DNA of 59,643 bases, filler included. It is 6 parts of 6 records of this genome, joined end to end, with 100 filler letters (N's around TTAATTAATTAA, not from the genome) between each part and the next. Parts side by side here need not be neighbours in the genome. Positions count along the whole stretch, not along the records: positions 24,962 to 34,367 come from SRR31156797_18724; 5 more parts are not named here. The stretch is one strand, 5' to 3'. A program made the translations under genes and the position numbers. This document shows, one piece after another, positions 7,562-52,590 of this stretch (the first letter of the stretch is position 1; each line of letters starts with the position of its first letter). The notes below the pieces were generated by a model, which saw nothing but the letters and a program-made list of their open reading frames with translations, searched no databases and was not told the origin of the DNA.

Positions 7562-7661
7562 NNNNNNNNNNNNNNNNNNNNNNNNNNNNNNNNNNNNNNN
7601 NNNNNTTAATTAATTAANNNNNNNNNNNNNNNNNNNNNNNNNNNNNNNNNNNNNNNNNNNN
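7562..7661. other. Artificial contig linker
   Basis: 44 N + TTAATTAATTAA + 44 N. Confidence 0.98.
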
Positions 7662-21562: not shown

Positions 21563-21675
21563 CTGTTATGTCTGATATTCTGGATTTTTCCTGATTGATC
21601 TTTTCTAATTCTGATCGATTTCATATCTTTGTCAATAGTAGACCCATAACCAAATTTAAATCATTTTATAATGCT

Positions 21676-24600
21676 ATGAAAAAAATGCTACTCACCCTGC
21701 TAATTGCGATTATCGCAAATGCAGGCCACACCCAGGAAAACCCAATTTTAACATTCACTGGTGCCAACAACACAACGCATGTCCAACTCGACAGTATAAA
21801 AATTACCAACCGCACACAAAACTGCGACACTGTCCTGTTTTGGCCCGATACGGTTCTCGACTTGTCAAATGTTGGGATAAGTGAAATCGGAAATTCTAAG
21901 GATCAGTTGCAGGTTTTCCAAAATCAGCCCAACCCTGTTGCGCATGAAACCAAAGTATCAATTCATGTTCCCAACAGGGAAATGACTGAGATATTAATTA
22001 CAGATGTAAATGGCAGAACCCATATCTCAAAAGAATTTCTACTGGACCGAGGTACACATGAATACCAATTTACGATGGGAGCAGGTAAAATGTATTTATT
22101 CACCGCAAGAAATACCAACGGGCAAAGCAGTATAAAAATCCTTGGAAGCAAGACCCAAAAAAACCGAAAACCAGTACTTAAATATATAGGGACGAGCGGC
22201 TCCTCATTTTCATATAAACAATTAAAAACTTCTGAGCATTTTGCTTTTAATCCTGGCGACCAGTTGCTCCTTAGCGGTTACTACGATATTCTTGAGTCCG
22301 GATTGATGGCGACTCCGGAATCAAACCAGATATTTGTGTTTCAGTTTGCGTATAATATTCCTTGTCCGGGAAAACCCATTGTTGATTATGGCGGGAAAGT
22401 TTACAGCACGGTGCAGATATTTAACCAATGCTGGCTGAAACAAAACCTGGATGTTGGGGGCATGATTCCTGGAGAAGATAATATGCAGGATAACGGATCA
22501 ATTGAGAAGTACTGTTATAATGATTCTCCGGCAAACTGTAATTTATTCGGCGGACTATACCAGTGGGAGGAAATGATGCAGTATTCTCAGAAATCTCCTA
22601 GCCAGGGTATTTGCCCGGATGGATGGCGCCTGCCAACTGACCGGGATTGGAATTTACTGGAAGGGGCGGCTGATAGTCATTATCCTGCAGGCGATCCCGA
22701 ATGGGACGATCTGGGATTTTGTGGTTTTGATGCCGGATTGCATTTAAAAACCACATCCGGCTGGAATGGGTTTGGCAATGGAACAGACCAGTATGGATTT
22801 GGAGCAGTTGGAGGTGGAAGCCGGGATCTTGCGGGAACTTTCAATTCAAGTAATTCCAGTGGTTACTGGTGGTCTTCAAGTGAATATTCCGATGATCGTG
22901 CTTATCAGCGAAGCGTGGGATTTAACTATAACTACGTTATTCGTGAAATATCCTTCAAGCCTTTCGGGTATTCTGTTCGCTGTCTTTTCGACAATAATGG
23001 GTATTCTCCCATTTCAGATTTTTCCACAGAACCAGCCTTTGGGTTTGTTCCTTTATCCGTCAGTTTTATTGATGAAACTTCTAATGACCCCGTTAGTTGG
23101 TTTTGGAATTTTGGTGATGGAAATTTTAGCTCTGACCAAAATCCTGAACATATATACCAGGAAACGGGGTCATATACAGTTTCGTTGGTCACATCAAATG
23201 TCTATGGCACTGATACAATTATAAAAGTTGATAATGTGCATGTAGTATCTCCCGGTGGAGGGTCGCCGTGCGAAGGTCTGGAAACCGTTGAATATGAAGG
23301 CAGGCTCTACAATACAGTGCTAATCGGAAACCAATGTTGGATGAAGGAGAATTTAAATGTTGGGGAAATGATACAGGGCGATGATAATATGGCCTTCAAT
23401 GAGACCATAGAAAAATATTGCTACGATAATGATCCGGTAAACTGCGATTTGTATGGCGGTTTGTATCAATGGGATGAGATTATGCAATACATCTTACAAC
23501 AGGGTGTGCAGGGTATTTGTCCCGAAGGGTGGCATATTCCAACCGATGCTGAATGGAAAACTCTTGAAGGCACGGTTGACAGCCTTTACCAGGAGGGCGA
23601 TCCGATTTGGGAAGAGTTAGGCACACGGGGTTATAATGCAGGTAAAAACCTGAAATCAGCTTACTGGTGGGAAAATGATGGGAATGGAACGAATATATAT
23701 GGATTTAGTGGACTTCCTGGTGGGCGTCGCGAACCTGATGGATCATTTGTTCTATTAAATAATACCGGACATTTTTGGTCATCAAGCGAATACGCTACAG
23801 CTACCCATGCCTGGTACCGTAGCCTGAAAAGTGAATTTGATGGCTCTGGAAGGACAAGTAGCTTCAAAACACGTGGTTTATCCGTGAGGTGTATGATTGC
23901 CGACTACGGCCTTTCACCCGATGGTGATTTTTCAGCTGTACCGGTATTTGGAACAGCTCCACTTTCAGTATATTTTACTGACCAATCCATGCATAATACT
24001 ACTGAATGGCATTGGGATTTTGGTGATGGCAATACAAGCACCGATCAAAACCCCGATCACATTTATCAGGATACCGGTTTTTATACCGTAACATTGATTG
24101 TCACCAACGCCTTTGGCTCAGATACAGTCACAAAAACAGATTTTGTAAATGTTGTTTCCGGTGGTGGGGGAGAGCCCTGTCCGGGTATGGAGACCATAAC
24201 ATACGAAGGGCAGGAGTATAACACGGTGCTGATTGATGACAGATGCTGGTTAAAGGAAAACCTGAATGTTGGTTTTATGATAACTGGACAAACGAACATG
24301 AGTAACAATGGAACGCTCGAGAAATATTGTTACGATAACAACCCTGTAAATTGTGAATTATATGGTGCATTGTACCAGTGGGATGAGGCGATGCAGTACA
24401 CAACACAGAAGGGAGAGCAGGGTATTTGCCCGGAAGGCTGGCATATTCCCACTGAAGAAGAACTAAAAATCCTTGAAGGAACTGTTGACAGTGTATACCC
24501 TGTAGGTGATCCCATTTGGGAAGAAAATGGTATGCGTGGTTTTGATGTAGGAAAGAAGCTTAAGTCGCTGAATTTTTGGAATAACAGCGGTTACGGAACA

Positions 24601-24819
24601 GATGCATACGGTTTTAGCCTGGTACCCGGAGGTCGTCGAGATCAGGATGGGACTTTTCTGCAGTTAGGAGATGTCGGTTCGTTCTGGTCGTCAAGTGAAT
24701 ATGTTACGGAAACACATGCATGGTACCGGCACCTGAAACACGATTTTGACGGTTCTTACAAAACCAGCAGTTACAAAACGCGTGGCTTTGCTGTGCGTTG
24801 TATCCATGATGACGAATAA
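21676..24819 (+). CDS. Exported protein with 3 FISUMP (Fib_succ_major) and 2 PKD domains
   Basis: Three Y.TV.I..QCW.K.NL...GICP.GW..P...SVRC units alternating with W.W.FGDG PKD units; TATCTTTG -7 element at 21624-21631 supports the 21676 start. Confidence 0.88.
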   Translation: MKKMLLTLLIAIIANAGHTQENPILTFTGANNTTHVQLDSIKITNRTQNCDTVLFWPDTVLDLSNVGISEIGNSKDQLQVFQNQPNPVAHETKVSIHVPNREMTEILITDVNGRTHISKEFLLDRGTHEYQFTMGAGKMYLFTARNTNGQSSIKILGSKTQKNRKPVLKYIGTSGSSFSYKQLKTSEHFAFNPGDQLLLSGYYDILESGLMATPESNQIFVFQFAYNIPCPGKPIVDYGGKVYSTVQIFNQCWLKQNLDVGGMIPGEDNMQDNGSIEKYCYNDSPANCNLFGGLYQWEEMMQYSQKSPSQGICPDGWRLPTDRDWNLLEGAADSHYPAGDPEWDDLGFCGFDAGLHLKTTSGWNGFGNGTDQYGFGAVGGGSRDLAGTFNSSNSSGYWWSSSEYSDDRAYQRSVGFNYNYVIREISFKPFGYSVRCLFDNNGYSPISDFSTEPAFGFVPLSVSFIDETSNDPVSWFWNFGDGNFSSDQNPEHIYQETGSYTVSLVTSNVYGTDTIIKVDNVHVVSPGGGSPCEGLETVEYEGRLYNTVLIGNQCWMKENLNVGEMIQGDDNMAFNETIEKYCYDNDPVNCDLYGGLYQWDEIMQYILQQGVQGICPEGWHIPTDAEWKTLEGTVDSLYQEGDPIWEELGTRGYNAGKNLKSAYWWENDGNGTNIYGFSGLPGGRREPDGSFVLLNNTGHFWSSSEYATATHAWYRSLKSEFDGSGRTSSFKTRGLSVRCMIADYGLSPDGDFSAVPVFGTAPLSVYFTDQSMHNTTEWHWDFGDGNTSTDQNPDHIYQDTGFYTVTLIVTNAFGSDTVTKTDFVNVVSGGGGEPCPGMETITYEGQEYNTVLIDDRCWLKENLNVGFMITGQTNMSNNGTLEKYCYDNNPVNCELYGALYQWDEAMQYTTQKGEQGICPEGWHIPTEEELKILEGTVDSVYPVGDPIWEENGMRGFDVGKKLKSLNFWNNSGYGTDAYGFSLVPGGRRDQDGTFLQLGDVGSFWSSSEYVTETHAWYRHLKHDFDGSYKTSSYKTRGFAVRCIHDDE

Positions 24820-24861: not shown

Positions 24862-24961
24862 NNNNNNNNNNNNNNNNNNNNNNNNNNNNNNNNNNNNNNN
24901 NNNNNTTAATTAATTAANNNNNNNNNNNNNNNNNNNNNNNNNNNNNNNNNNNNNNNNNNNN
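24862..24961. other. Artificial contig linker
   Basis: 44 N + TTAATTAATTAA + 44 N. Confidence 0.98.
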
Positions 24962-25630
24962 AGCGTCTTTTTCATGTCCGAAAAGCTCATTGGCTAAAAG
25001 CTCTTCCGTAAAAGCCCCGCAGTTGAAAGCCATGAATTTTTCGTCTTTTCGCAAGCTCAAATTGTGAATCGTCCTGGCCGCCAATTCCTTGCCAACCCCG
25101 GTTTCGCCTATAATCAGTACGCTCGAATCAGTCGGCGCCACCTGTTGAATAAGTTGGGTGACCTTGCGTATCGGATCGCTCGATCCTACAATAAGCGGCC
25201 TGTCTTTTTCATGTATTTCCAACAGGATTTGTTTTAGCTTTACATTCTCCAGGAAAAGTCTTTTTTTCAATAAGGCTTCGCGAACCAGCTTGCGAACAAG
25301 ATCTATCTTGAACGGTTTGGGTATGTAATGGAATGCTCCTTGCCTCATGGCCTCCACTGCCGTATCAACCGTGGCGTAAGCCGTTATCATGATTACTTCA
25401 GTATGCGGTTGTTCCAACCGGGCCTTGTTAAGAACATGCAGACCGTCAACCTTTTTCATCTTCAAGTCAGTCAGTATAAGGTCGAACTCCTTTCTCTCAA
25501 TAAGAGAAACAGCCTGCTCGCCGGAAGACGCAGGCACGGTTTTATAGCCTTCCCTTTGAAGTATATGCTCCAAATTCTGGCGCGCCATGTCGTCATCTTC
25601 GACAACAAGTATTACTTCACTAGAAGTCAT
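24962..25630 (-). CDS. Sigma54-dependent NtrC-family response regulator (3'-truncated)
   Basis: REC domain (LTDLKM, KPF) + GETGVGKE Walker A + NCGAF..ELFGHEK. Confidence 0.95.
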
Positions 25631-27104
25631 GATTATTTTTAGTCTGCTTGAGGGGCAGGGTTATTATGAATTTTGTGCCGCCGCCAATTTCACTGTAGAC
25701 CGATACTTCGCCATTGTGCTTTTGAATTATGCCGTACGTAACATAAAGCCCCAAACCCGAACCTCCCTTTTCTTCTTTTGTGGAAAAAAACGGATCGAAA
25801 ATTTTTGCCAGCTTTTCCGATGGTATGCCAACTCCGGTATCCTTTATTTCCATTATCGCGTTATCTTTTTTGGGACTGTAATAAGCGCTTATGGTCAGTC
25901 TGCCCCCTGCGTCCTCCATGGCTTGCACGCCATTTAAGATCAAATTGATAAGGGCCTGGGATAAACGCCGCTGGTCCACTTCCAATTCCAGGGTGTAGGG
26001 AATATCTATTTCTATTTCCACATCGGGCGGTATTTCGCTATGAACGAGTTTTACGGTTTTCTCGACCAGCGTTTCCATGTCCGTAAGAACAGGTTCAAAC
26101 TCTCTTTCACGGGCGAATTCCAAAAGAGATTTTACAATATCGCGAGCTTTTTCCACCTGTTCCTCAATACCGGCCAGCAGCATTTTCTTGAATTCCAAAT
26201 CTCCTTCATTAATCTCTTCCAAAAGTATTTGGGTGGAACTGGATATGTTGCTCAAGGGATTGTTCAGTTCGTGGGCCACGCCGGAAGTAAGCGTTCCCAA
26301 TGCGGCCATCTTTTCACGTTGAAGCAGTTGCTCTGATTTCTTGTCAAGCTCCTTGATCATCATGTTCAAGACAGTGGTCAGGGATTGTATTTCCGAGGTT
26401 TTGGCGGAAGTTATGGGTATTTCACGTTGCTGGCCTTCAATAACTTCCTTGGCCGCTTTTTCAATTCTGGACAGTGGTGCAATGATTAGAAAAAACAGGT
26501 AATAGCCTACGCTTAGAGCCAAGAGGATAAAAGCTGCCAGAGGATAAAAAATGGACCTTTTTTGGTCTTCCACTAGCTGGTCGACACGGCGTCGTTCGGT
26601 TATCACCATTTCCAGCATGCTTTCCGTAAAAGACCTGCCCAAATCCCTGATTCTGGTGGTCAGAAAAAGCTCGGCCTCTCCACTGTCAACCGGAGAGGCG
26701 CTGCGTAGCTTTTCACTGAAAAGAGTGACGGCTTTTTTGTAATTGACCAGCATATTGTGGTTGCTTTTAAGCTTGGCGTTGCTGATGCTTCTGTGTTCGT
26801 TTTCGCTCAGACGTTGAAGCTTTTGTTCCGTCTTGGATAAAAATTCCATCATCAGGTCGAAATTTTCCATTTCCCCGTACAGGAAAAAGTTTTTCTCATA
26901 TCGGCGGACCTCCAGAGCATTATTGACCAGGTCGTCCGCCACTTCGATGAAGTTCATTTTTTCCTGGATAAGGGTATGCCGCCTGTATGTCATGACGGTA
27001 ATAACGAGCCCTCCCACCAGCAACAGCGAGAAGGCGATCGTGATCTTATGTCGCAGGGCCAAGGCAATACGGGTCTTCATGGCCGTCTCCTTGTGGTCGG
27101 ACAT
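25620..27104 (-). CDS. Membrane sensor histidine kinase (HAMP-HisKA-HATPase)
   Basis: Two TM segments, AHELNNPL H-box, DTGVGI, FDPFFSTK, GSGLGL. Confidence 0.95.
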   Translation of the reverse strand: MSDHKETAMKTRIALALRHKITIAFSLLLVGGLVITVMTYRRHTLIQEKMNFIEVADDLVNNALEVRRYEKNFFLYGEMENFDLMMEFLSKTEQKLQRLSENEHRSISNAKLKSNHNMLVNYKKAVTLFSEKLRSASPVDSGEAELFLTTRIRDLGRSFTESMLEMVITERRRVDQLVEDQKRSIFYPLAAFILLALSVGYYLFFLIIAPLSRIEKAAKEVIEGQQREIPITSAKTSEIQSLTTVLNMMIKELDKKSEQLLQREKMAALGTLTSGVAHELNNPLSNISSSTQILLEEINEGDLEFKKMLLAGIEEQVEKARDIVKSLLEFAREREFEPVLTDMETLVEKTVKLVHSEIPPDVEIEIDIPYTLELEVDQRRLSQALINLILNGVQAMEDAGGRLTISAYYSPKKDNAIMEIKDTGVGIPSEKLAKIFDPFFSTKEEKGGSGLGLYVTYGIIQKHNGEVSVYSEIGGGTKFIITLPLKQTKNNHDF

Positions 27105-27134: not shown

Positions 27135-28943
27135 TTAAATACCATAGAACATGTAGACAACGCCAATGAGAACAGCGATGAAGATGACCGACATGATGGA
27201 ACCGGCCTTTATAAAATCGACGCTGCGGTACCTGCCCGGCCCCATGTACAAGGCGTTGACCTGGTGGGTCGGCAGAATGAACGAGTTGGAAGTAGCCATA
27301 CCCACTATCATGGCGGCCATTCGAGGATCCATGTTTGCCTGCTGGGCCATGCTCACTACGAGGGGCACAAGCAGAACCGTGGCCCCGACATTGGAAACCA
27401 CCAGGGTGAATACCGTGGAGATTACGGCAATAACCGTTAATAAAACAATGGGCGAAACCGGACCCAGCAACGACAAGGTCTTGGTGGCAATGTAGGCCGC
27501 GGTCCCGCTTTTCATCGTGGCAATGCCCAGGGGTATCAAACCGGCCAGGAGAAAGACCGTCCGCCAGTCAACCGCCTGGTAGGCTTCATCTATTGAAATG
27601 ACCCTGGTTAATATCATCCCCAGGGCGCCGGTCATCAGGCATACTGATAGCTGAATCTTAAAAAACATGACCATGGACAAGGCGACGGCCAGCCAAAGAC
27701 CGGCCAACAGAGCCTTTTGAGGCCGGAGAATTTCCGCGTCCATGGGTGAGGAAAAAAGAAAATCCCCGTTTTCCTGGAGAATATGAAATCTTTCCCATTG
27801 TCCCTGTAGTAAAATGGCGTCGCCGGGCTGCAGAATTATATCGGACAAGCCCGCATAATAGGTTTTTTCACCCCTGTATATGGCCAGACAATTAACCCTG
27901 AATTTTTGGCGAAAGTGGACCTGGGCCAGGGTTTTGCCCGCCAGTTCCGACCTTGGGGCCACAACCACTTCAACCGTGCCGGCCATGCTCGGAGACAGTT
28001 CTTCCTTGAATACATCCAGTTCGTATTTTATCGAAAATCCGAATTCCTGGGCCAGCCGCAGTACGTTTGTTTCAGGGCCTACTACTACAAAGTTGTCGCC
28101 GGCATGAATGTCGCAATCCCTTTCCGGAGCGAATATCATGCCCCCGGTTGCATGCCTGGCCACGGCTTGCAGATGAACGAGGTAGAGGTCCCTCATCATC
28201 TGCATGGTTATAAGTCTGTCGAAATGGTCCGGCGCTTTCAGTTCAAATTCTTCTCCCAACCGGCCGTAAGTGTGAGCCACCATATCCTGCGCAGCCTGGC
28301 CGTCTCCTTCGCCTTCCTTTTTACCGGGAAGCACAAACCTGCCGAAAATGACAAAATACATGATACCGGAAGCCACCAGGCACAGACCTATGGGCGTCAC
28401 TGAAAAAAGACCGAAAGGTTCAAGCCCGAAGGGCTTGATTAGATCGTTCAGCAAAATAAGCGGGCTCGATCCGACCAAGGTAACCGTTCCGCCGAGTATG
28501 GCGCAAAACCCGATAGGCATGAGCAGCTTGGACAGAGGAATATTCAATTGCTTGCTGATACGCTGAATGGCCGGCAGAAAAAGCGCGGCCGCGCCGATAT
28601 TTTGCATAAAACTGCTGATACCGGCCACGGTGGCGGATATCATTATAATGATCCGGGATTGGCTATCCCCTGCGATTTTGAGAATAGGGGATACAAGCCG
28701 GTTTATCAGCCCTGTTTTGTCAAGGCCCGCGCCGATGATGATTACGGCGATAATTGAGACCACGGCGTTACTGGACAGGCCGCTGAAAGCCTCGCCCGGA
28801 GTGACAAGTTTTAAAAGCGGCAGGGTGACCATCATCATTATCGCCACCACGTCCACCCGGACCCATTCCACAATAAATAAAAAGACCGCCACACCGATCA
28901 TGGCTATTACCATTATTATTTCCGTCGTCAATGTCGGTTCCAT
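27135..28943 (-). CDS. SLC13/DASS family transporter with TrkA-C domains
   Basis: SSFMQNIGA, GGTVTLVGSSP, VSNVGA, PTHQVNAL; central soluble TrkA-C region. Confidence 0.9.
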   Translation of the reverse strand: MEPTLTTEIIMVIAMIGVAVFLFIVEWVRVDVVAIMMMVTLPLLKLVTPGEAFSGLSSNAVVSIIAVIIIGAGLDKTGLINRLVSPILKIAGDSQSRIIIMISATVAGISSFMQNIGAAALFLPAIQRISKQLNIPLSKLLMPIGFCAILGGTVTLVGSSPLILLNDLIKPFGLEPFGLFSVTPIGLCLVASGIMYFVIFGRFVLPGKKEGEGDGQAAQDMVAHTYGRLGEEFELKAPDHFDRLITMQMMRDLYLVHLQAVARHATGGMIFAPERDCDIHAGDNFVVVGPETNVLRLAQEFGFSIKYELDVFKEELSPSMAGTVEVVVAPRSELAGKTLAQVHFRQKFRVNCLAIYRGEKTYYAGLSDIILQPGDAILLQGQWERFHILQENGDFLFSSPMDAEILRPQKALLAGLWLAVALSMVMFFKIQLSVCLMTGALGMILTRVISIDEAYQAVDWRTVFLLAGLIPLGIATMKSGTAAYIATKTLSLLGPVSPIVLLTVIAVISTVFTLVVSNVGATVLLVPLVVSMAQQANMDPRMAAMIVGMATSNSFILPTHQVNALYMGPGRYRSVDFIKAGSIMSVIFIAVLIGVVYMFYGI

Positions 28944-29196: not shown

Positions 29197-30249
29197 TCAA
29201 AAAAAGGCCAGGGAAAAAACGGGAATGGCCGGGGCCGCGCCTGGAGCCCGTTCAACGTTTTCATCCGGCTCTGTCAAAACGTATTCCATACGCTTGAACT
29301 CCCGATGCAACTCTCTTATGACATCGGTCGCCTCGCCGAATTTTGTAATATGGTGAAAAACAACCCCCGCGTCCTCACACTGGGTTTGAAAATCGCCGGC
29401 CGCCTCAGAAGCCAGGACGGTAAAATCCTCTCTGAGTTTGTCCCTGTACGGAGTGACCAGAGGCAGGAAATCGTTCGGGATATACTTTGTGTTTACAGCC
29501 ACGATTTCGTATTTTAATCGGCCGGCCAGACCTATTGCATATTCTTTCAGGTCTTTTGAAAACGCGTGGCCGCGCCCCACCACCAGAAGCATCGGCGGTT
29601 CCTGCTCGATTCTTTCCAATACGCGAATAGCCTCTTCCGGCATATTGGCTTCCGCATAGGTCACCGCCTCGTGGTACTGGTCCATTTTTTCAGTAAACTT
29701 GGATACTCTGCTCTTCTTTTTCACCGTTACATCACTCATATTCTCACCTCGATCTTGTTTATTCCTTGTCTTGAGGGATACCAGGGGTATGGGAATCTTG
29801 TTGTGCAACTCTTGTGGCGGATTGCCCATGTTTTCTTCAGACGGACCGTCATAAACCGCCACGACAGCGTCCCGGTTGTTTTCGACAAATTGGACAATCT
29901 CTTTTTCAATGTCGCCGATCTTGATGGTAACGTTATAATCAACCGCTTCTTCGCCCGTCTCTTCGAAATACGTCAGCGACTGCGCCGCCTTTGTCATGAT
30001 GTTTTCAATATTTTCAGCCATCTTTGGCTCGCCTGCTTCGGCAAATGCCGCCGCCGCCATAGCGGCCTCAAAACCCGCGGCGCCGTCCTTCAAAGCCCTA
30101 AGCATGTCGCGCCATTTTTTATTGCTTCCAGGGTTTATTACTTGCAGGATTTCAACCTTGGCTCTAAGCCGCTGGGCCAGTCCCAGGGCGTACCTGGCCG
30201 CCTCCTCCCGCGGAACGCTGCCTTTTATAGCCAATAGTATTTTCTTCAT
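29197..30249 (-). CDS. Universal-stress-protein-like protein, apparently two fused units each with an 'AEA' motif
   Basis: MKKILLAI...A.YALGLA..L USP-type start; internal GAGGTG-5nt-ATG at 29739. Confidence 0.7.
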   Translation of the reverse strand: MKKILLAIKGSVPREEAARYALGLAQRLRAKVEILQVINPGSNKKWRDMLRALKDGAAGFEAAMAAAAFAEAGEPKMAENIENIMTKAAQSLTYFEETGEEAVDYNVTIKIGDIEKEIVQFVENNRDAVVAVYDGPSEENMGNPPQELHNKIPIPLVSLKTRNKQDRGENMSDVTVKKKSRVSKFTEKMDQYHEAVTYAEANMPEEAIRVLERIEQEPPMLLVVGRGHAFSKDLKEYAIGLAGRLKYEIVAVNTKYIPNDFLPLVTPYRDKLREDFTVLASEAAGDFQTQCEDAGVVFHHITKFGEATDVIRELHREFKRMEYVLTEPDENVERAPGAAPAIPVFSLAFF

Positions 30250-30332: not shown

Positions 30333-30521
30333 TTACTCGTCAGCGGACGGCGCCCTCATTTCAGGACGCGGGCGGGGCGCGCCGGCGCGCACCTGTGCTC
30401 TTTTTCTGAGACGGGCTTGTTTGCGTTCGGTCAGCATTTCCAGGGCGGTCTTGTGTTCGCCTGCTTCGGCAAAGGTCGCCGCCATCATGTATTCTTCGAA
30501 TTTCTTAAAAAAGTCTTTCAT
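30333..30521 (-). CDS. Small hypothetical protein with AATFAEAGE motif
   Basis: GGGGGA RBS; first gene after the sigma54 promoter; motif shared with the next gene. Confidence 0.75.
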   Translation of the reverse strand: MKDFFKKFEEYMMAATFAEAGEHKTALEMLTERKQARLRKRAQVRAGAPRPRPEMRAPSADE

Positions 30522-30556
30522 GGTATTTCCCCCATCTTATTTTTAGCTCTTTTATT

Positions 30557-30572
30557 CCAATAACCATGCCAA
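30557..30572 (-). promoter_or_regulatory. Sigma54 (-24/-12) promoter
   Basis: TTGGCATGGTTATTGG: GG-N10-GG (variant of GG-N10-GC); the operon encodes a sigma54 activator. Confidence 0.65.
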
Positions 30573-30620
30573 ATTGAATAATTGACGCATCTTGTTGATA
30601 AAACAAATAAATCACCTCAA

Positions 30621-30754
30621 GTCGCGTTTCGCCTCAAATTTCCTCCCATCGTTGCGTTTTGTAACGCTTTTTTTGTAACGAACTTATTTATATATTTATT
30701 ACAAGGTGTTATAATCGCATTGCTAAAACGCAACCAGGCGTTGCGTTTCGCAAC
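30621..30754. promoter_or_regulatory. Array of palindromic enhancer-like sites GTTGCG-N3-YGYAAC
   Basis: GTCGCGTTTCGCCTC 30621, GTTGCGTTTTGTAAC 30651, ATTGCTAAAACGCAAC 30719, perfect GTTGCGTTTCGCAAC 30740. Confidence 0.7.
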
Positions 30755-30855
30755 ATAAAGAAGAAGGACGAATACTTTATTGTCAGGAAAAAGATGTTTG
30801 TTGTTGGGTCGGCCCTGATAATATATCATCATAGTATACGGCCGGGGGTGAGCTA

Positions 30856-32865
30856 ATGAAATTGTTCGGCAAATCCGATGATAATCAGACATTCGACGAC
30901 GATCTGATTCTTCTCGAAAAGTCGATCGAGGAAGCCGATATTCCGCCCAAGGTCCGAAGCCTGGCGCTTAACGAATTGGATAAGCTGCAAAAATGTCACC
31001 CTAGCACGGCCGAATACACTATCGGACAGAATTACCTGGATTACCTTCTCAACCTGCCCTGGTCCAAGAGCAGCGAAGACGACCTGGATATCAAAAGGGC
31101 TGAAGCAATATTGGACCAGGAGCATTTCGGGCTAGACAGGGCAAAGGACAGGATTCTTGAATACCTGGCCGTACGGACTTTATACGCCAGAAGCAAGGGC
31201 CGCATCCTGGTTGTGGATGACGAAGAGATTACCAGGAAAAACCTGGATTACGTATTATCCAAGGAAGGATACAACATTCGAACGGCCGCGAACGGCGAAG
31301 AAGCCCTGGCCGTGCTGGACAGGCAGGATTTCGACATAGTACTGACAGACATGAAAATGGGGCGGGTCGATGGAATACAGGTGCTGGAGCATGCCCGGAT
31401 AAAAAATCCCCAAACCCAGGTCGTAATGATTACAGGGTACGCCACGATTGACTCGGCCGTGGAAGTCATGAAAAAGGGCGCCTTCCATTACCTGACCAAG
31501 CCTTTTAAACTTGACGAAGTCCGGGAAACAATAAGTCGCATTGTCAGTGAAAAAACCCGGACCAGCGGAATACGGGGCCCGATACTCTGTTTTGTGGGGC
31601 CTCCGGGCACGGGCAAAACATCCCTGGCCCATTCAATCGCCCGGGCCCTGGGAAGAAAATTTATCAGGGTTTCCCTGGCCGGGATGAAAGATGAAGCAGA
31701 ACTAAGGGGCCACAGGCGAACTTACGCCGGGGCATTGCCCGGAAGAATAATACAGGAAATCAGAAGGGCCGGAGTGAATAACCCCGTTTTTCTGCTCGAT
31801 GAAGTGGACAAGGCCATACAGGGTTTCAAGGGAGATCCTACATCGGCTTTGCTGGAAGTGTTGGATCCCGAGCAAAACAGCGCCTTTACGGACTATTACC
31901 TGGATATTCCCTTTGACCTGTCCGCGGTTATCTTTATTGCCACGGCCAATATAATAGACCCCATTCCGCCGGCCTTGTTGGACAGGATGGAAATCCTGGC
32001 TCTTAGCGGGTACACGGATATGGAAAAAGCGGGAATCGCACTTAAATTTATTGTCCCCAAACAGATCAAGGAAAACGGCCTTACCGACAATCCCCCCGAA
32101 TTCACCCGGGAAGCGGTATTGCTGATAATACGGGAATACACTCGCGAGGCCGGATTAAGAAGTCTTGAGCGGGAGATAGCCAGGTTGTGCCGAAAACTTG
32201 CCCGGGAAACCCTGGTTAATGGGTCCGCCGACGGCCCCCAAAAAATCACCGGGGAACTGGTCCCTGACTATTTGGGTCCAAGGCGCTATTATCACGAAGT
32301 CGCGGCCGCGGTGGACAGGGTCGGCGTGGCCACAGGGTTGGTCTGGACGGAAAACGGCGGTGAAATTATATCCGTGGAAGCGACCATAATGCGCGGCCGT
32401 TCGGAATTAATACTTACCGGATCGCTTGGGGATGTCATGCAGGAATCCGCCCAGGCCGCCTTGAGTTTTTTACGGGCCAACACGAACCAGTTCGGCCTGG
32501 AAGAAGACTTTTTCCTGGACACGGATATTCACATTCACGTGCCGGCCGGCGCGATTCCAAAGGACGGCCCGTCAGCCGGATTGACCATCGCCCTGGCCCT
32601 GCTTTCCCGGTTGAAGAATATCCCCGCGAAACGGGACGCGGCCCTGACCGGCGAGCTTACACTCTCGGGCCGGGTTCTGCCGGTGGGCGGGATTCGGGAA
32701 AAAGTTTTGGCCGCCAAAAGGGCCGGGGTTAAAACTCTTGTCTTTCCGGAAAAAAACCGGGGCTCATTCAGCGATATTCCCCCGGAAGCTTATGAAGGAA
32801 TGGACGTTTATTTTGTGGATTCATTGGAAATGGCGGCGGAATATTCCCTGGTCAAATCCGAATAA
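30856..32865 (+). CDS. lon: Lon (endopeptidase La) lacking the N-domain, with an inserted receiver domain
   Basis: GPPGTGKTS, LLDEVDK, PKDGPSAG (Ser) and GGIREK (Lys); REC domain at about 31201-31550. Confidence 0.93.
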   Translation: MKLFGKSDDNQTFDDDLILLEKSIEEADIPPKVRSLALNELDKLQKCHPSTAEYTIGQNYLDYLLNLPWSKSSEDDLDIKRAEAILDQEHFGLDRAKDRILEYLAVRTLYARSKGRILVVDDEEITRKNLDYVLSKEGYNIRTAANGEEALAVLDRQDFDIVLTDMKMGRVDGIQVLEHARIKNPQTQVVMITGYATIDSAVEVMKKGAFHYLTKPFKLDEVRETISRIVSEKTRTSGIRGPILCFVGPPGTGKTSLAHSIARALGRKFIRVSLAGMKDEAELRGHRRTYAGALPGRIIQEIRRAGVNNPVFLLDEVDKAIQGFKGDPTSALLEVLDPEQNSAFTDYYLDIPFDLSAVIFIATANIIDPIPPALLDRMEILALSGYTDMEKAGIALKFIVPKQIKENGLTDNPPEFTREAVLLIIREYTREAGLRSLEREIARLCRKLARETLVNGSADGPQKITGELVPDYLGPRRYYHEVAAAVDRVGVATGLVWTENGGEIISVEATIMRGRSELILTGSLGDVMQESAQAALSFLRANTNQFGLEEDFFLDTDIHIHVPAGAIPKDGPSAGLTIALALLSRLKNIPAKRDAALTGELTLSGRVLPVGGIREKVLAAKRAGVKTLVFPEKNRGSFSDIPPEAYEGMDVYFVDSLEMAAEYSLVKSE

Positions 32866-32880
32866 GGTAGTCGCTATATA

Positions 32881-34281
32881 TCATTCTTCCACGGCCGCGT
32901 TTTTCCCGGCAATGCGACCGAAAACAATGCAATCCGGTATGGCGCAGCTTCCCAGTCTGCAGGCCCCGTGAATTCCTCCGGTTATTTCTCCGGCCGCGTA
33001 CAATCCTTTAATGGGCTGGTTGTCAAGATCCATAACCCGGGCCCGGGCGTCAATTCTAATACCGCCCATGGTGTGGTGGACCTTCGGCCAATGCCGCATG
33101 GCGTAAAATGGAGCATTAACGATGGGTTTTACGCCCGGTAGAAATGGTTTGCCCATTTCTTCATCAGCGCCGTTTTCTACATATTCATTGTAACGGTCTA
33201 CTGTCTCTTCCAGGTCGGCAAGCGGAATGCCGTAGTTTGAAGCAAGTTCTTCAAGGCTGTCGAATTTCTTGACCACTCCTTTTTTAAGACAGTGATCTAT
33301 GGTATGCCCCGACTGTTCCACAGCCGTTGCATCGGTAATGCCGATACAGGGGCGCCCTGTTTTGAGAATGGCGTCGGCCCGTATTTTACGGTCGGCCAGC
33401 TCATTCACCACGCGCTTTCCGGTCTCGGGATCAACCATAATTCCATAGGGAAAGGCAATATAGCTGCCGAAATCAGGTCCGGCGCCGTAACCCTTTTCAT
33501 CAGCAGACGCCCAGGGGCCAAGTTGAATCCAGGAGAGATGCACGGGCGCCGCTCCCAGGCGCATGGCTTCCTTCAGTGTTTCAGCCGTGGTGCATTCCTT
33601 GTTGGTGCTGCCGATTTCAGAAGTCAACCTGGGGTCCTGGGCGGTGCGAAAGACAACATCGTTGGCGAATCCCCCCGCGGCCAGAATGACTGCCTTGCCC
33701 GCCTTGATATATTTCAAGTCGCCGCTGCTTTTATCAGGGTATTTATATTTCTCGCGAACCAGAACGCCGCTAACCCTGCCGTCCGCATCGGTTAGAACTT
33801 TTTCCAGGTAATTTCTGGTCCGGATATTGACGCCCAGTTCCTTGAGTTTTTTTACTTGCTTGATAATTATTTCAGCTCCGGTGCGCCTGTGCGGCGTCAA
33901 GCAGCGGCGAACGGAATGACCGCCGAACATGTCCACGCCTTCTTCAAAACGGGCGCCCAGAAAATCCATGGTCCACTGAAGCGCCTCTGTGGATTGTTCC
34001 GCCACAATACGGACAAGTTCGGGATGGTTGAGCCCAAGGCCGGCCTTCATCATATCTTCGGCCATCAGTTCGGGAGAATCCTCAATGCCCAGTTCCGCCT
34101 GCCAGGGCGATCCGGCCGCGGCCATAACCCCGTCGCTGATAATGGAATTTCCGCCGTATCCATTCATTTTTTCCAAAATGACAACCGAAGCGCCGGCCAT
34201 TTTGGCTTCGATTCCAGCGGCCAGCCCGGCAAAACCGCTTCCTATTATCACCACGTCAGCGGCTTCATCCCATTTATACAT
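32881..34281 (-). CDS. Flavocytochrome c-type FAD reductase (fumarate/urocanate reductase superfamily), substrate unknown
   Basis: IIGSGFAG, LAAGGF, VHHTMGG, GLYAAGEITGGIHGACRLG; no haem motif or signal peptide. Confidence 0.88.
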   Translation of the reverse strand: MYKWDEAADVVIIGSGFAGLAAGIEAKMAGASVVILEKMNGYGGNSIISDGVMAAAGSPWQAELGIEDSPELMAEDMMKAGLGLNHPELVRIVAEQSTEALQWTMDFLGARFEEGVDMFGGHSVRRCLTPHRRTGAEIIIKQVKKLKELGVNIRTRNYLEKVLTDADGRVSGVLVREKYKYPDKSSGDLKYIKAGKAVILAAGGFANDVVFRTAQDPRLTSEIGSTNKECTTAETLKEAMRLGAAPVHLSWIQLGPWASADEKGYGAGPDFGSYIAFPYGIMVDPETGKRVVNELADRKIRADAILKTGRPCIGITDATAVEQSGHTIDHCLKKGVVKKFDSLEELASNYGIPLADLEETVDRYNEYVENGADEEMGKPFLPGVKPIVNAPFYAMRHWPKVHHTMGGIRIDARARVMDLDNQPIKGLYAAGEITGGIHGACRLGSCAIPDCIVFGRIAGKNAAVEE

Positions 34282-34367: not shown

Positions 34368-34467
34368 NNNNNNNNNNNNNNNNNNNNNNNNNNNNNNNNN
34401 NNNNNNNNNNNTTAATTAATTAANNNNNNNNNNNNNNNNNNNNNNNNNNNNNNNNNNNNNNNNNNNN
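34368..34467. other. Artificial contig linker
   Basis: 44 N + TTAATTAATTAA + 44 N. Confidence 0.98.
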
Positions 34468-36771: not shown

Positions 36772-37536
36772 ATGCGAAAAATAGCTATTTACGGAAAAGG
36801 GGGAATCGGTAAATCGACGGTCTGTTCGAATTTATCGGCGGCCCTGTCCCTGGGAGGATTGAATATCATGCAGGTGGGGTGCGATCCCAAGGCGGATTCG
36901 ACCCTCCATTTAACCGACGGAAAACCTCCCGCAACCGTTATCTCCTATCTGAAAGAAAAGGGTGTCTGCAACGACATCAAAGAGGTCGTAAAGCGGGGCT
37001 TCAATGGCATCGCCTGCATCGAATCCGGCGGCCCTCCCCCCGGTATAGGCTGCGCCGGCAAGGGGATTCTATCCACCTTCTCCGTGATAGAGGATCTCAA
37101 CGCCTTCGCCGCATACAAGCCGGATATTGTTCTGTTTGATGTTCTGGGTGACGTCGTCTGCGGCGGATTTACCATGCCCCTGAGAAAGGGATGGGCGGAG
37201 GAAGTCTATATCGTCACTTCCGGAGAAAAGATGTCCCTGTTTGCCGCCCGGAATATCAAGCAGGCACTGGATAATCTCGCAAACAGAGGATATGCGAAAC
37301 TGTGCGGGATAATCGGGAACTGCCGGGGCCTGCCGGACGAAGAGAGGATCCTTAAGGACTTTTCCGCTGAAATGGGCTCGGAGCTGATAGGCACACTCCC
37401 CCGGGACGATGAGCTCGCATACTGGGAAAGCCTTGATAAAACCGCCGTCGAAGGCAACGGGGAGGCGGCCATTTCTAAGGCCTTTTTCAGCCTGTCCCGC
37501 AGGATCGCGGCAGGGGGTATCAACGATGAACAGTGA
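36772..37536 (+). CDS. NifH-like Fe protein (nitrogenase-like reductase, H subunit)
   Basis: YGKGGIGKS, GCDPKADST, ESGGPPPGIGCAGKG, DVLGDVVCGGF with both 4Fe-4S cysteines. Confidence 0.93.
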   Translation: MRKIAIYGKGGIGKSTVCSNLSAALSLGGLNIMQVGCDPKADSTLHLTDGKPPATVISYLKEKGVCNDIKEVVKRGFNGIACIESGGPPPGIGCAGKGILSTFSVIEDLNAFAAYKPDIVLFDVLGDVVCGGFTMPLRKGWAEEVYIVTSGEKMSLFAARNIKQALDNLANRGYAKLCGIIGNCRGLPDEERILKDFSAEMGSELIGTLPRDDELAYWESLDKTAVEGNGEAAISKAFFSLSRRIAAGGINDEQ

Positions 37537-38857
37537 TCCCTTCGGGATTCCCGTCCGGGATCTGTCCAACAGCTCCACCCACTGGAGAAAAAAGATCATG
37601 CCCGACGATGCTCTTCATTTCATGCCTCCCCACGGAGGAACCTGGGGGCTTGTCAGAACCTCTCTGCAGCTGCCGGGATCCATTGTCCTGATGGCGGCCC
37701 CGCCGGTATGCGCGAGGATTACGGGCTTGAGAGAACTCCGTCTGGATTTCCGTGAGCGCTTCTTTTTTCTGAATGTGGGGGAAGAGGAGTTCGCCAACGG
37801 CAGTTCTGAATCAATGATCCTTGACGCGGTTGACGAAATTATCTCCTATCTTGATGAAAAACCGAAATTTCTGTTCTTCTGCGAAACCTGCCTTGATGAC
37901 CTTCTGGGCTCCGATTACCCCTGGCTGAGCGAACAGGTGGAGCGCCGATACGGCATCAGATCGACGTCCCTTCATCTGAAACCGACATCCGCCGAGGGGC
38001 GCCGGCCCGGAGGGCTTTTGACACAGAAGGCCATCTACGACCTGATAAGGCCTGTCTCCGGCCGGGACAAGGGGATCAACCTTATGGGTTCGGCCCTTCC
38101 CATCGACAGAAACAGCGAGTTTTACACCCTCGTTGAACGGGCGGGGATCGGCCCGGTACGCCACATATCGGAGTGTACCGCCCCGGAGGATTTTGACAGG
38201 ATGAGCGGCTCCTCCTGGAACATACTCTACCGCCCGGCGGCAAGACTTGCCGTCAGAAGCATGAAAGAGAACTACGGGATCCCCTATCTCCATCTTCCCG
38301 GAGCCTACGGACTGGAAACGGTGGACGAGAACTACCGCCTTCTGGAGGATTTCTTCGGAGTGGAACTTGAAACGAAACCCTTCAGGGAGGAGACGGAGGA
38401 GTTTCTCTCGGAGCAGAGAAACCTGTACCGGGGTATGGAGGTAGCCGTCGGAGCCAGCGTCTACACGGGCCCCTTTGAACTGGCCCGGGCATTAATCGAA
38501 TACGGAATGGATGTGCGCTATGTGTTCGCCAATGTCGTTATGGATATCGACAGCGAACCCATCCGGTGGCTGAAGGAGAAGAGAGGGGATCTTATGGTCT
38601 ATCCCAGTTCACATACAAGCATGGCCCGGTTTCACAGCCTAAGGAAAAAAGTGGATCTTGCCTTCGGTTACGAGGCAGGTTATTTCTGCTCCGAAGCCAA
38701 AACCGTCGATCTCAGTGCCGACAAGCCCTTCTTCGGATACTGGGGAATCAGGTCTCTCTTTCAGGAGATTCGAAACGCCCTGAGCTCGCCCCGAAGCCAT
38801 AGACAGTCGATGTACTCAAACTACGATCCTTCCGGGAGCCGACGATGCGGGGGTTAA
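37526..38857 (+). CDS. Nitrogenase component-1-like protein (D-type)
   Basis: APPVCAR, CETCLDDLLGSD, PFFGYWG; ATG at 37526 after GGGGG RBS overlaps the nifH-like stop. Confidence 0.85.
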   Translation: MNSDPFGIPVRDLSNSSTHWRKKIMPDDALHFMPPHGGTWGLVRTSLQLPGSIVLMAAPPVCARITGLRELRLDFRERFFFLNVGEEEFANGSSESMILDAVDEIISYLDEKPKFLFFCETCLDDLLGSDYPWLSEQVERRYGIRSTSLHLKPTSAEGRRPGGLLTQKAIYDLIRPVSGRDKGINLMGSALPIDRNSEFYTLVERAGIGPVRHISECTAPEDFDRMSGSSWNILYRPAARLAVRSMKENYGIPYLHLPGAYGLETVDENYRLLEDFFGVELETKPFREETEEFLSEQRNLYRGMEVAVGASVYTGPFELARALIEYGMDVRYVFANVVMDIDSEPIRWLKEKRGDLMVYPSSHTSMARFHSLRKKVDLAFGYEAGYFCSEAKTVDLSADKPFFGYWGIRSLFQEIRNALSSPRSHRQSMYSNYDPSGSRRCGG

Positions 38858-43601: not shown

Positions 43602-43701
43602 NNNNNNNNNNNNNNNNNNNNNNNNNNNNNNNNNNNNNNNNNNNNTTAATTAATTAANNNNNNNNNNNNNNNNNNNNNNNNNNNNNNNNNNNNNNNNNNN
43701 N
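43602..43701. other. Artificial contig linker
   Basis: 44 N + TTAATTAATTAA + 44 N. Confidence 0.98.
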
Positions 43702-52490: not shown

Positions 52491-52590
52491 NNNNNNNNNN
52501 NNNNNNNNNNNNNNNNNNNNNNNNNNNNNNNNNNTTAATTAATTAANNNNNNNNNNNNNNNNNNNNNNNNNNNNNNNNNNNNNNNNNNNN
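52491..52590. other. Artificial contig linker
   Basis: 44 N + TTAATTAATTAA + 44 N. Confidence 0.98.

Follow-up and report, generated by a model that had tools for sequence, protein, structure and literature searches.

The stretch of DNA analysed here (the window, 59,643 nucleotides (nt) with spacers) is made up of six separate contigs placed end to end, with N44-TTAATTAATTAA-N44 spacers between them at 7562-7661, 24862-24961, 34368-34467, 43602-43701 and 52491-52590. Since the window consists of separate contigs, genes on different pieces are not neighbours. The subject of this study is a gene located well inside the contig piece 24962-34367. It encodes a LonA-type protease with a complete receiver (REC) domain in its AAA+ module, which we call REC-Lon. 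The gene and its parts are:

30856..32865, plus strand: REC-Lon gene (669 amino acids (aa), from the open reading frame (ORF) call), a LonA-derived ATP-dependent protease with an inserted receiver and no N-domain
30856..31194, plus strand: pre-ATPase helical region, residues 1-113, a three-helix bundle and a helix leading into the AAA+ module, kept from LonA
31201..31566, plus strand: receiver, residues 116-237, identified by Pfam, BLASTP, alignment, AlphaFold2 model and structure superposition
31573..32220, plus strand: AAA+ module, residues 240-455, with Walker A GPPGTGKT (K254), Walker B D315/E316 and the lid at 405-455
32245..32850, plus strand: S16 protease domain, residues 464-665, with the catalytic residues S573 (32572-32574) and K616 (32701-32703)

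Pfam domain matches were accepted at E <= 0.01. The Response_reg domain (Pfam: PF00072) is found at residues 117-226 with an E-value of 2.9e-30 and covers positions 1-110 of the 111 positions of the model. It is followed by the AAA domain (Pfam: PF00004) at 244-381, Lon_lid (Pfam: PF22667) at 405-455 and Lon_C (Pfam: PF05362) at 464-665 with an E-value of 6e-77. At this threshold REC-Lon has no match to the substrate-binding domain LON_substr_bdg (Pfam: PF02190), for which canonical LonAs were positive in the same search, and none to Sigma54_activat (Pfam: PF00158) or to helix-turn-helix families including HTH_8. The NCBIfam model for endopeptidase La (TIGR00763) matches with 721.1 bits against a cut-off of 608.05, in two stretches split by the insert, and for the E. 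coli-type Lon model NF008053 the protein stays under the cut-off (590 vs 891).

The borders of the insert were located with phmmer searches against the PDB. Positions 12-102 of B. subtilis Lon (PDB: 3m6a) correspond to residues 19-109 of REC-Lon and positions 103-531 to residues 236-666. As the 3m6a positions are consecutive across the gap, about 126 residues (110-235) are cleanly inserted and zero Lon residues are lost. In the same way residues 16-109 match positions 7-100 of 4ypl, and residues 240-666 match positions 347-771 of the full-length Meiothermus LonA. In the structural alignment with 4ypn and 7yuh_A, into which the REC-Lon model enters from residue 14, the protein starts at about residue 243 of Meiothermus LonA, so that the first ~240 LonA residues, comprising the substrate-binding N-domain and the long helix, are absent. 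The inserted receiver follows the last pre-ATPase helix and precedes strand 1/Walker A of the AAA+ domain.

For the conservation analysis REC-Lon was aligned with 69 relatives, giving 70 rows. The receiver residues are the acid pocket D121/D122, the phospho-acceptor D165 (codon 31348-31350), T193 and K215. D122, D165 and K215 are invariant in 70 out of 70 members, together with G248/K254/T255, D315/E316, N365, R377, S573 and K616, and D121 and T193 are kept in at least 90% of them. N365 and R377 are taken by us to be the sensor-1 residue and the arginine finger, with labels carried over from LonA. A preliminary description of this locus, made from the DNA letters, had stated that the N-domain is lacking, that a complete receiver is spliced into the AAA+ module, and that Walker A/B and the Ser-Lys dyad are intact. 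All three statements are borne out, the first by the missing LON_substr_bdg match and the start of the protein, the second by Pfam, phmmer and the superposition of the structure model described below, and the third by the conservation in 70 out of 70 members.

Judged by its sequence, the inserted receiver is of the NtrC type. Its best PDB matches are 1zy2, 4l4u and 1ny5 with E-values of about 1e-23 (phmmer), and its best NCBIfam match is AtoC, with the CpdR and RssB models matching partially.

A window of concatenated contigs raises the question of whether the fusion is an artefact of assembly or binning, in which a response regulator gene was joined to a Lon gene. The gene, on the other hand, lies in the interior of one contig piece, and the same architecture is found at 69 other genome loci. 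Furthermore, a 14,553-nt Logan contig from a second study covers 30718-32865 unbroken with 95 differences and one gap (~96% identity) and runs across the receiver borders on both sides. The same stretch is covered without any difference by the likely source run. A misassembly at the receiver borders, which had been named beforehand as the fault to look for, is excluded by the bridging contig and the 69 loci. We regard the artefact explanation as refuted, with a negligible chance of being correct.

An AlphaFold2 model of REC-Lon was built on the 70-row alignment, with a mean predicted local distance difference test score (pLDDT) of 85 and a predicted template modelling score (pTM) of 0.78. The pre-ATPase helices of the model span residues 9-26, 31-46, 52-66, 79-89 and 94-112. 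Strand 1 of the receiver is at 116-120 and its long helix 5 at 219-237, which continues directly into AAA+ strand 1 at 243-247. From these positions, both receiver linkers would be only ~3-5 residues long. Aligned with VIA-align, the model matches Meiothermus LonA (PDB: 7yuh_A) with a Z-score of 31.2, 2.3 Å over 528 residues and 50% identity. It also matches 4ypn, which contains the three-helix bundle and the AAA alpha/beta domain, with a Z-score of 30.1 and 2.2 Å over 249 of 250 residues in the range 14-385. About 123 model residues within this range are unaligned to 4ypn, which is about the size of the receiver insert. Model residues 113-237 superpose on the CheY-like receiver 3crn_B with a Z-score of 23.2 and 1.2 Å over 125 residues. 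Foldseek concurs with these matches. An NtrC1-like structure of two domains, receiver and AAA+, is not among the 50 matches listed for the model. Going by the model, REC-Lon would in effect be the N-truncated AAA+-plus-protease form of Lon used by crystallographers with a receiver added.

The likeness to both parent families can be described from these data. What REC-Lon shares with LonA (TIGR00763, MEROPS S16; structures from B. subtilis, Meiothermus taiwanensis and E. coli, in particular the N-truncated constructs PDB: 3m6a, 4ypl, 4ypn) is the three-helix bundle, followed by the AAA+ motor, lid and Ser-Lys protease domain. It differs from LonA in the absence of the N-domain and long helix and in the presence of a 126-residue receiver before strand 1. 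With NtrC1 of Aquifex (PDB: 1ny5/1zy2), NtrC and DctD it shares an NtrC-type receiver and a helix that links this receiver to an AAA+ core. In these NtrC-family activators the receiver is N-terminal, whereas in REC-Lon it is an insertion after the first AAA+ helix. The activators also possess sigma-54 interaction and DNA-binding domains, of which none is seen in REC-Lon.

Relatives of the protein were collected as the 120 best matches to REC-Lon residues 1-260. The receiver and AAA domains are present in all 120 listed matches, and in 115 of them (570-729 aa) Lon_C is found as well. The remaining five matches, of 397-473 aa, lack Lon_C, and at least one carries the label partial. Four matches without Lon_C, P0118 (397 aa, on a 436-kb contig), P0048, P0113 and P0053, have the helical region, the receiver and the AAA domain, and some of these may be true protease-less forms rather than fragments at contig ends.

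We compared 79 related genome loci, of which 69 carry the receiver-containing Lon and 10 a canonical LonA of 776-832 aa. Ten of the 79 had been candidates for short Lons without receiver, and were rejected after ORF calling and Pfam annotation identified them as full-length canonical LonAs. The 69 REC-Lon loci belong to Desulfobacterales and other Thermodesulfobacteriota, to Nitrospirota/Thermodesulfovibrionales and, in one record, to an organism labelled Nitrospinaceae. The family is thus widespread in bacteria of the sulfate-reducer type and in Nitrospirota. With a query spanning both junctions, REC-Lon was found in 37 of 301 sampled genomes of one phylum.

In a tree of 537 shared columns, from which the receiver columns were excluded by the fill threshold, one branch with a support of 99 (Shimodaira-Hasegawa-like approximate likelihood ratio test, SH-aLRT) splits the 70 REC-Lons from 18 canonical LonAs. 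Eight of these 18 LonAs are from the five REC-Lon genomes that were examined for further Lons. The tree is compatible with a single origin of REC-Lon. In all five genomes REC-Lon is an extra paralogue, as each also has one to three full-length LonAs with LON_substr_bdg.

The genes next to REC-Lon on the contig are, in order of their distance on the upstream side and followed by the downstream gene:

30333..30521, minus strand: microprotein of 62 aa with the motif FAEAGE, divergent from REC-Lon (ORF call, motif, alignment)
29197..30249, minus strand: Usp-domain protein of 350 aa with two FAEAGE-type motifs (ORF call, Pfam, motif search)
27135..28943, minus strand: permease of the CitMHS/TrkA_C anion-transporter type, 602 aa (Pfam), the counterpart of the D. 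vulgaris 'putative anion transporter' DVU3299
25620..27104, minus strand: membrane sensor histidine kinase of 494 aa with HisKA and HATPase_c, the presumed phosphodonor
24962..25630, minus strand: NtrC-type sigma-54 response regulator with a receiver and the start of Sigma54_activat (Pfam: PF00158), identified by Pfam
32881-34281, convergent with REC-Lon: FAD flavoprotein gene, downstream of REC-Lon

The regulator gene is cut by the contig end, so that only its first ~224 aa are present. Its receiver and the Lon receiver are identical at 57 of 110 positions in a gapless BLASTP alignment with an E-value of 6e-48. The preliminary description had counted 57 identities in 107 positions; the number of identities and the absence of gaps stand, and the length is corrected to 110.

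We analysed synteny at the 30 REC-Lon loci for which 7 kb or more are available on each side, counting neighbours within 8 kb, and used the 10 LonA loci as control. A kinase similar over its full length, including the sensor region, occurs at 16 of the 30 loci and an NtrC-type regulator at 18. Both are found together at 16 of the 30 loci, versus none of the 10 canonical LonA loci, where not even one of the two is present. The domain architecture and synteny search that the preliminary description had suggested has thereby been run, with REC-Lon recovered at 69 out of 79 loci. Proteins similar to the CitMHS permease and the Usp protein of the window are present at 12 and 13 of the 30 loci, respectively. 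In Desulfobacterales loci the order of the window, namely regulator, kinase, CitMHS and Usp, is repeated divergently from REC-Lon. There are variants with TauE plus Usp at two loci (L062 and L047).

The relationship of the two receivers was followed in three genomes with 24, 72 and 53 receiver matches. In all three the best match of the window receiver is the REC-Lon receiver and the second is the receiver of the syntenic NtrC regulator ~6.5 kb away. These syntenic NtrC receivers have 49-51% identity and 120-123 bits, with the next receivers at 95-105 bits. Accordingly, the syntenic NtrC receiver is the closest non-self receiver to the Lon receiver in three out of three genomes. Helix 1 is the main kinase-docking surface of a receiver. 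In a comparison of 32 loci, Lon and NtrC receivers have an almost identical helix-1 consensus but differ in the helix-2 region, with less than 20% shared identity at most positions. That the kinase of the locus would feed both the sigma-54 regulator and REC-Lon is well supported by comparison.

If two mutually closest paralogues with a near-identical helix-1 consensus are present, they should compete for one kinase. The Lon receiver might therefore act mainly as a phosphate sink that draws phosphoryl groups of the kinase away from the NtrC-type regulator and thereby adjusts transcription, with Lon proteolysis being constitutive or secondary. This explanation would also suit two loci (L088 and L091) where the sigma-54/Usp/transporter module exists without REC-Lon, which makes REC-Lon look like an optional modulator. 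A receiver alone would suffice for a sink, however, whereas in all 70 members Walker A/B, the arginine finger and the Ser-Lys dyad are conserved without exception. The retention of Lon_C in 115 of the 120 listed matches likewise points to selection on ATP-dependent proteolysis. We consider a sink unlikely.

The intergenic region between REC-Lon and the microprotein gene contains three candidate regulatory elements:

30740..30754, palindromic: perfect site GTTGCGTTTCGCAAC, 116 nt upstream of the Lon start, matching the published motif of the D. vulgaris regulator DVU3305
30651..30665, palindromic type: second, imperfect copy of the site, GTTGCGTTTTGTAAC, from a motif search
30556..30571, minus strand: sigma-54-like promoter TGGCATGGTTATTGGA with a -12 element off consensus, 51 nt upstream of the FAEAGE ORF

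Perfect sites occur 13 times in the loci versus 0.1 expected from shuffles. Nine of the 13 are found in the 400 nt before REC-Lon; the LonA loci have none. The sigma-54-like element would drive the minus-strand operon. A scan of the whole window for the sigma-54 pattern gave 17 matches versus 25 expected and is not above chance, so the support for this element comes from its position and from the relatives. In these, TGGCAY-N5-TTGC is found within 160 nt upstream of 12 out of 34 small FAEAGE proteins, versus 0.005 expected. Directly upstream of REC-Lon, at 30755-30855, no consensus sigma-54 promoter was found by eye. A sigma-70-like element, TTTATA-17-TATAAT, is positioned upstream of REC-Lon at 30687-30715.

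In a ~96% identical contig (run X2), 129 other letters stand in place of 130 nt of the divergent promoter region (30587-30718), with the genes on either side retained. Both the imperfect regulator site and the sigma-70-like element fall within the exchanged stretch.

A system of this kind has been described in Desulfovibrio. The preliminary description had stated that no functional description of such fusions was known, which is wrong in view of Rajeev 2011 (PMC3333781) and Trotter 2023 (PMC10102598). In the passages of Rajeev 2011 covered here, DVU3303-3305 of D. vulgaris are proposed to be a 'three-component system' of a Lon-type response regulator, a kinase and a sigma-54 regulator, which regulates DVU3302-3298, encoding hypothetical, membrane and UspA-type proteins. 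DVU3303 is annotated there as 'ATP-dependent protease La, truncation'. Tables S7 and S9 of the same paper give the DVU3305 motif as GTTGCGATATGCAAC at -89 of DVU3303, and the supplement gives the site GTTGCGAAACGCAACA upstream of 'ATP-dependent protease Lon' in D. magneticus. The reverse complement of GTTGCGTTTCGCAAC is identical to the first 15 bases of this 16-base site. The covered passages of Kazakov 2015 (PMC4641369) list DVU3302-3298 as sigma-54 dependent and mark DVU3303-3305 as being without a sigma-54 promoter; a GAFTGA-type loop is a motif name in its table. The window agrees with this pattern, having the sigma-54-like element before the minus-strand ORF and the sigma-70-like element before REC-Lon. 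According to the covered passages of Trotter 2023 (PMC10102598), mutants in DVU3303:DVU3305 share a chlorate phenotype with pairwise cofitness >0.9, and this phenotype is linked to the target DVU3299, a putative anion transporter.

Comparing DVU3303 by its description, both systems combine a response regulator and Lon in one polypeptide, are linked to a histidine kinase and an NtrC-type sigma-54 regulator, stand opposite a divergent sigma-54 operon with hypothetical, Usp and membrane/anion-transporter genes, and have a GTTGCG-N3-YGCAAC regulator site upstream of the Lon gene. They differ in gene order: the D. vulgaris Lon gene shares one operon with kinase and regulator, whereas in the window the kinase and regulator end the divergent Usp/transporter operon and Lon stands alone. 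On balance, REC-Lon is probably an accessory LonA paralogue of the DVU3303 type. The family is already known, having been noted in Desulfovibrio in 2011, and the idea of a branched pathway comes from Rajeev 2011 (PMC3333781). Neither the insertion point nor the FAEAGE proteins are described in the covered passages of the DVU3303 papers. With the window the family gains one more member, its insertion point is mapped precisely and a set of candidate clients, the FAEAGE proteins, is defined.

We propose the following mechanism, to which as a whole explanation we assign a probability of roughly 0.6. The membrane kinase (25620-27104) would phosphorylate two paralogous receivers. The first would be that of the sigma-54 activator, which would bind the GTTGCG-N3-CGCAAC sites in the divergent intergenic region and turn on the operon of the FAEAGE microprotein, Usp protein, anion transporter, kinase and regulator. 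The second would be that of REC-Lon, whose phosphorylation at D165 would alter Lon activity. In this way, a few stress and transport proteins would have both their synthesis and their degradation under the control of one signal. Receivers of NtrC-family sigma-54 activators gate the assembly of the AAA+ ring. By analogy, phosphorylation of D165 would most likely switch ATPase-coupled proteolysis through subunit packing or ring assembly. Such control of ring packing would be the most economical possibility, because the short linkers wedge the receiver between the pre-core helix and strand 1 and because the receiver is of the NtrC type. As for the sign of the switch, activation of REC-Lon by phosphorylation is favoured by about three to two. 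Activation is mildly favoured by the D. vulgaris phenotypes, which have the same sign, an outcome that polarity of insertions in the first gene of the operon could also produce.

Two-component control of AAA+ proteolysis is known from separate adaptors. RssB (ClpXP, sigma-S) and CpdR (ClpXP, Caulobacter) similarly have a phosphorylatable receiver that decides what or when an AAA+ protease degrades, but they are separate proteins docking on ClpX, whereas the REC-Lon receiver is within the protease polypeptide and the protease is Lon. A receiver inside the protease motor would, if true, be a direct in-cis link from a sensor kinase to regulated degradation. In Xanthomonas citri, phosphorylation is reported to regulate Lon activity; the covered part of that report (PMC5784255) concerns Ser phosphorylation of a canonical LonA and not Asp phosphorylation of a built-in receiver. 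D. vulgaris is a tractable organism with genetic data on DVU3303-3305. Two further papers from the literature search (PMC7824862, PMC12471899) were unrelated to the Lon fusion.

Several points weigh against the two-receiver mechanism. The position of the receiver in the Lon ring would follow from topology alone, and the direction of the switch is a guess. The cofitness in D. vulgaris could be a polar effect, since Lon is given as the first gene of the DVU3303-DVU3305 operon, and the window system is equated with DVU3303-3305 by annotation, gene set and DNA motif, not by protein alignment. Our literature search, which covered subscription journals thinly, found no REC-Lon biochemistry (phosphotransfer, ATPase or protease) and no structure. 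At 12 of the 30 well-flanked loci there is neither a similar kinase nor an NtrC regulator within 8 kb. At three loci (L041, L057 and L006) the REC-Lon neighbours are unrelated to those of the window, and at L062 TauE, Usp and a different (HAMP) kinase stand beside REC-Lon. With these 12 loci and the differing neighbours, the pairing with kinase and regulator is not obligatory. Finally, Lon and NtrC receivers of the same locus are 53.2% alike versus 52.4% across loci, a value reached by 45 of 2000 permutations. This excess is very small and gives no clear co-variation signal of a shared kinase, so it was not used as support.

The 12 loci lacking the pair, the three with unrelated neighbours and the weak co-variation would also fit a Lon receiver that is not under the neighbouring kinase. 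It could instead respond to another kinase or to acetyl phosphate, or be a phosphorylation-independent docking or assembly domain that replaces the N-domain. Yet D122, D165 and K215 are invariant and D121 and T193 nearly so, which argues for real phosphorylation. In addition, the kinase/regulator linkage is specific to REC-Lon and the paralogy of the two receivers holds genome-wide. Control from elsewhere seems to us quite improbable. The branched kinase pathway that the preliminary description had put forward is supported by synteny (16 of 30 versus 0 of 10 loci) and by receiver paralogy in three of three genomes; these remain comparisons, and the pairing is not obligatory.

The FAEAGE proteins, which the preliminary description had proposed as substrates to try, are real: the motif is present in the 62-aa ORF and in the Usp protein beside REC-Lon. 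When the whole window is translated in six frames, a loose form of the motif has three occurrences, all of them adjacent to REC-Lon: one belongs to the 62-aa ORF and two to the Usp protein. A stricter form is found at 48 of the 69 REC-Lon loci, in 42 of them within 3 kb, and at none of the 10 LonA loci. Among the 42 loci that extend 3 kb or more in each direction, it is within 3 kb in 26 and anywhere in 32. There are no occurrences in reversed translations. The small FAEAGE proteins, 34 of which were aligned, are 54-64 aa long and consist of an N-terminal helical hairpin, a K/R-rich linker and a conserved C-terminal end of the RPxLR type. The same hairpin is found on Usp proteins. The microprotein matches no Pfam or NCBIfam family.

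FAEAGE also adjoins REC-Lon where the kinase/regulator pair is missing (L039, L042, L047 and L060). Among the 301 genomes, in raw counts that ignore kinship, 25 have REC-Lon and FAEAGE, 12 only REC-Lon, 27 only FAEAGE and 237 neither. Counted by hand in the same way, FAEAGE is thus present in 25 of 37 genomes with REC-Lon versus 27 of 264 without. In all 25 genomes with both, the motif is on the Lon contig and within about 10 kb of the Lon gene.

These associations suggest a tentative extension, which we hold to be doubtful. REC-Lon might be a dedicated signal-gated protease with the FAEAGE microproteins and hairpin Usp proteins as clients or adaptors. In this reading the hairpin would serve as a docking tag that different proteins can carry, with the tail as engagement site, and one kinase would both induce these proteins, via the sigma-54 regulator, and set their lifetime, via REC-Lon. 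Against a role as clients stands that the hairpin/Usp/transporter module also occurs without REC-Lon (L088, L091 and L089), so that the hairpin is not a Lon-only tag. Moreover, the adjacency of FAEAGE and REC-Lon may reflect only a shared divergent promoter region. A complex prediction of REC-Lon with the 62-aa FAEAGE protein, in which alignments were unused and the fold of the partner was uncertain, gave no answer (score 0.00) and speaks neither for nor against this role.

At one of the loci without REC-Lon (L089, G051:C21, 8394-9712), in a genome that has no REC-Lon, FAEAGE motifs are found on two single-domain receiver proteins. These adjoin a CBS protein, a Na/sulfate-type symporter and an LCIB-type carbonic anhydrase.

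Two observations concern other contig pieces of the window. At 36772-38857 a 254-aa ATPase is followed by a 482-aa ORF, which may be a nitrogenase-like or reductase pair; the N-terminus of the ATPase resembles the P-loop of the NifH/BchL family. At 21595-24819 there is a 1074-aa ORF with three long internal repeats, each of which ends in a conserved block containing Cys.

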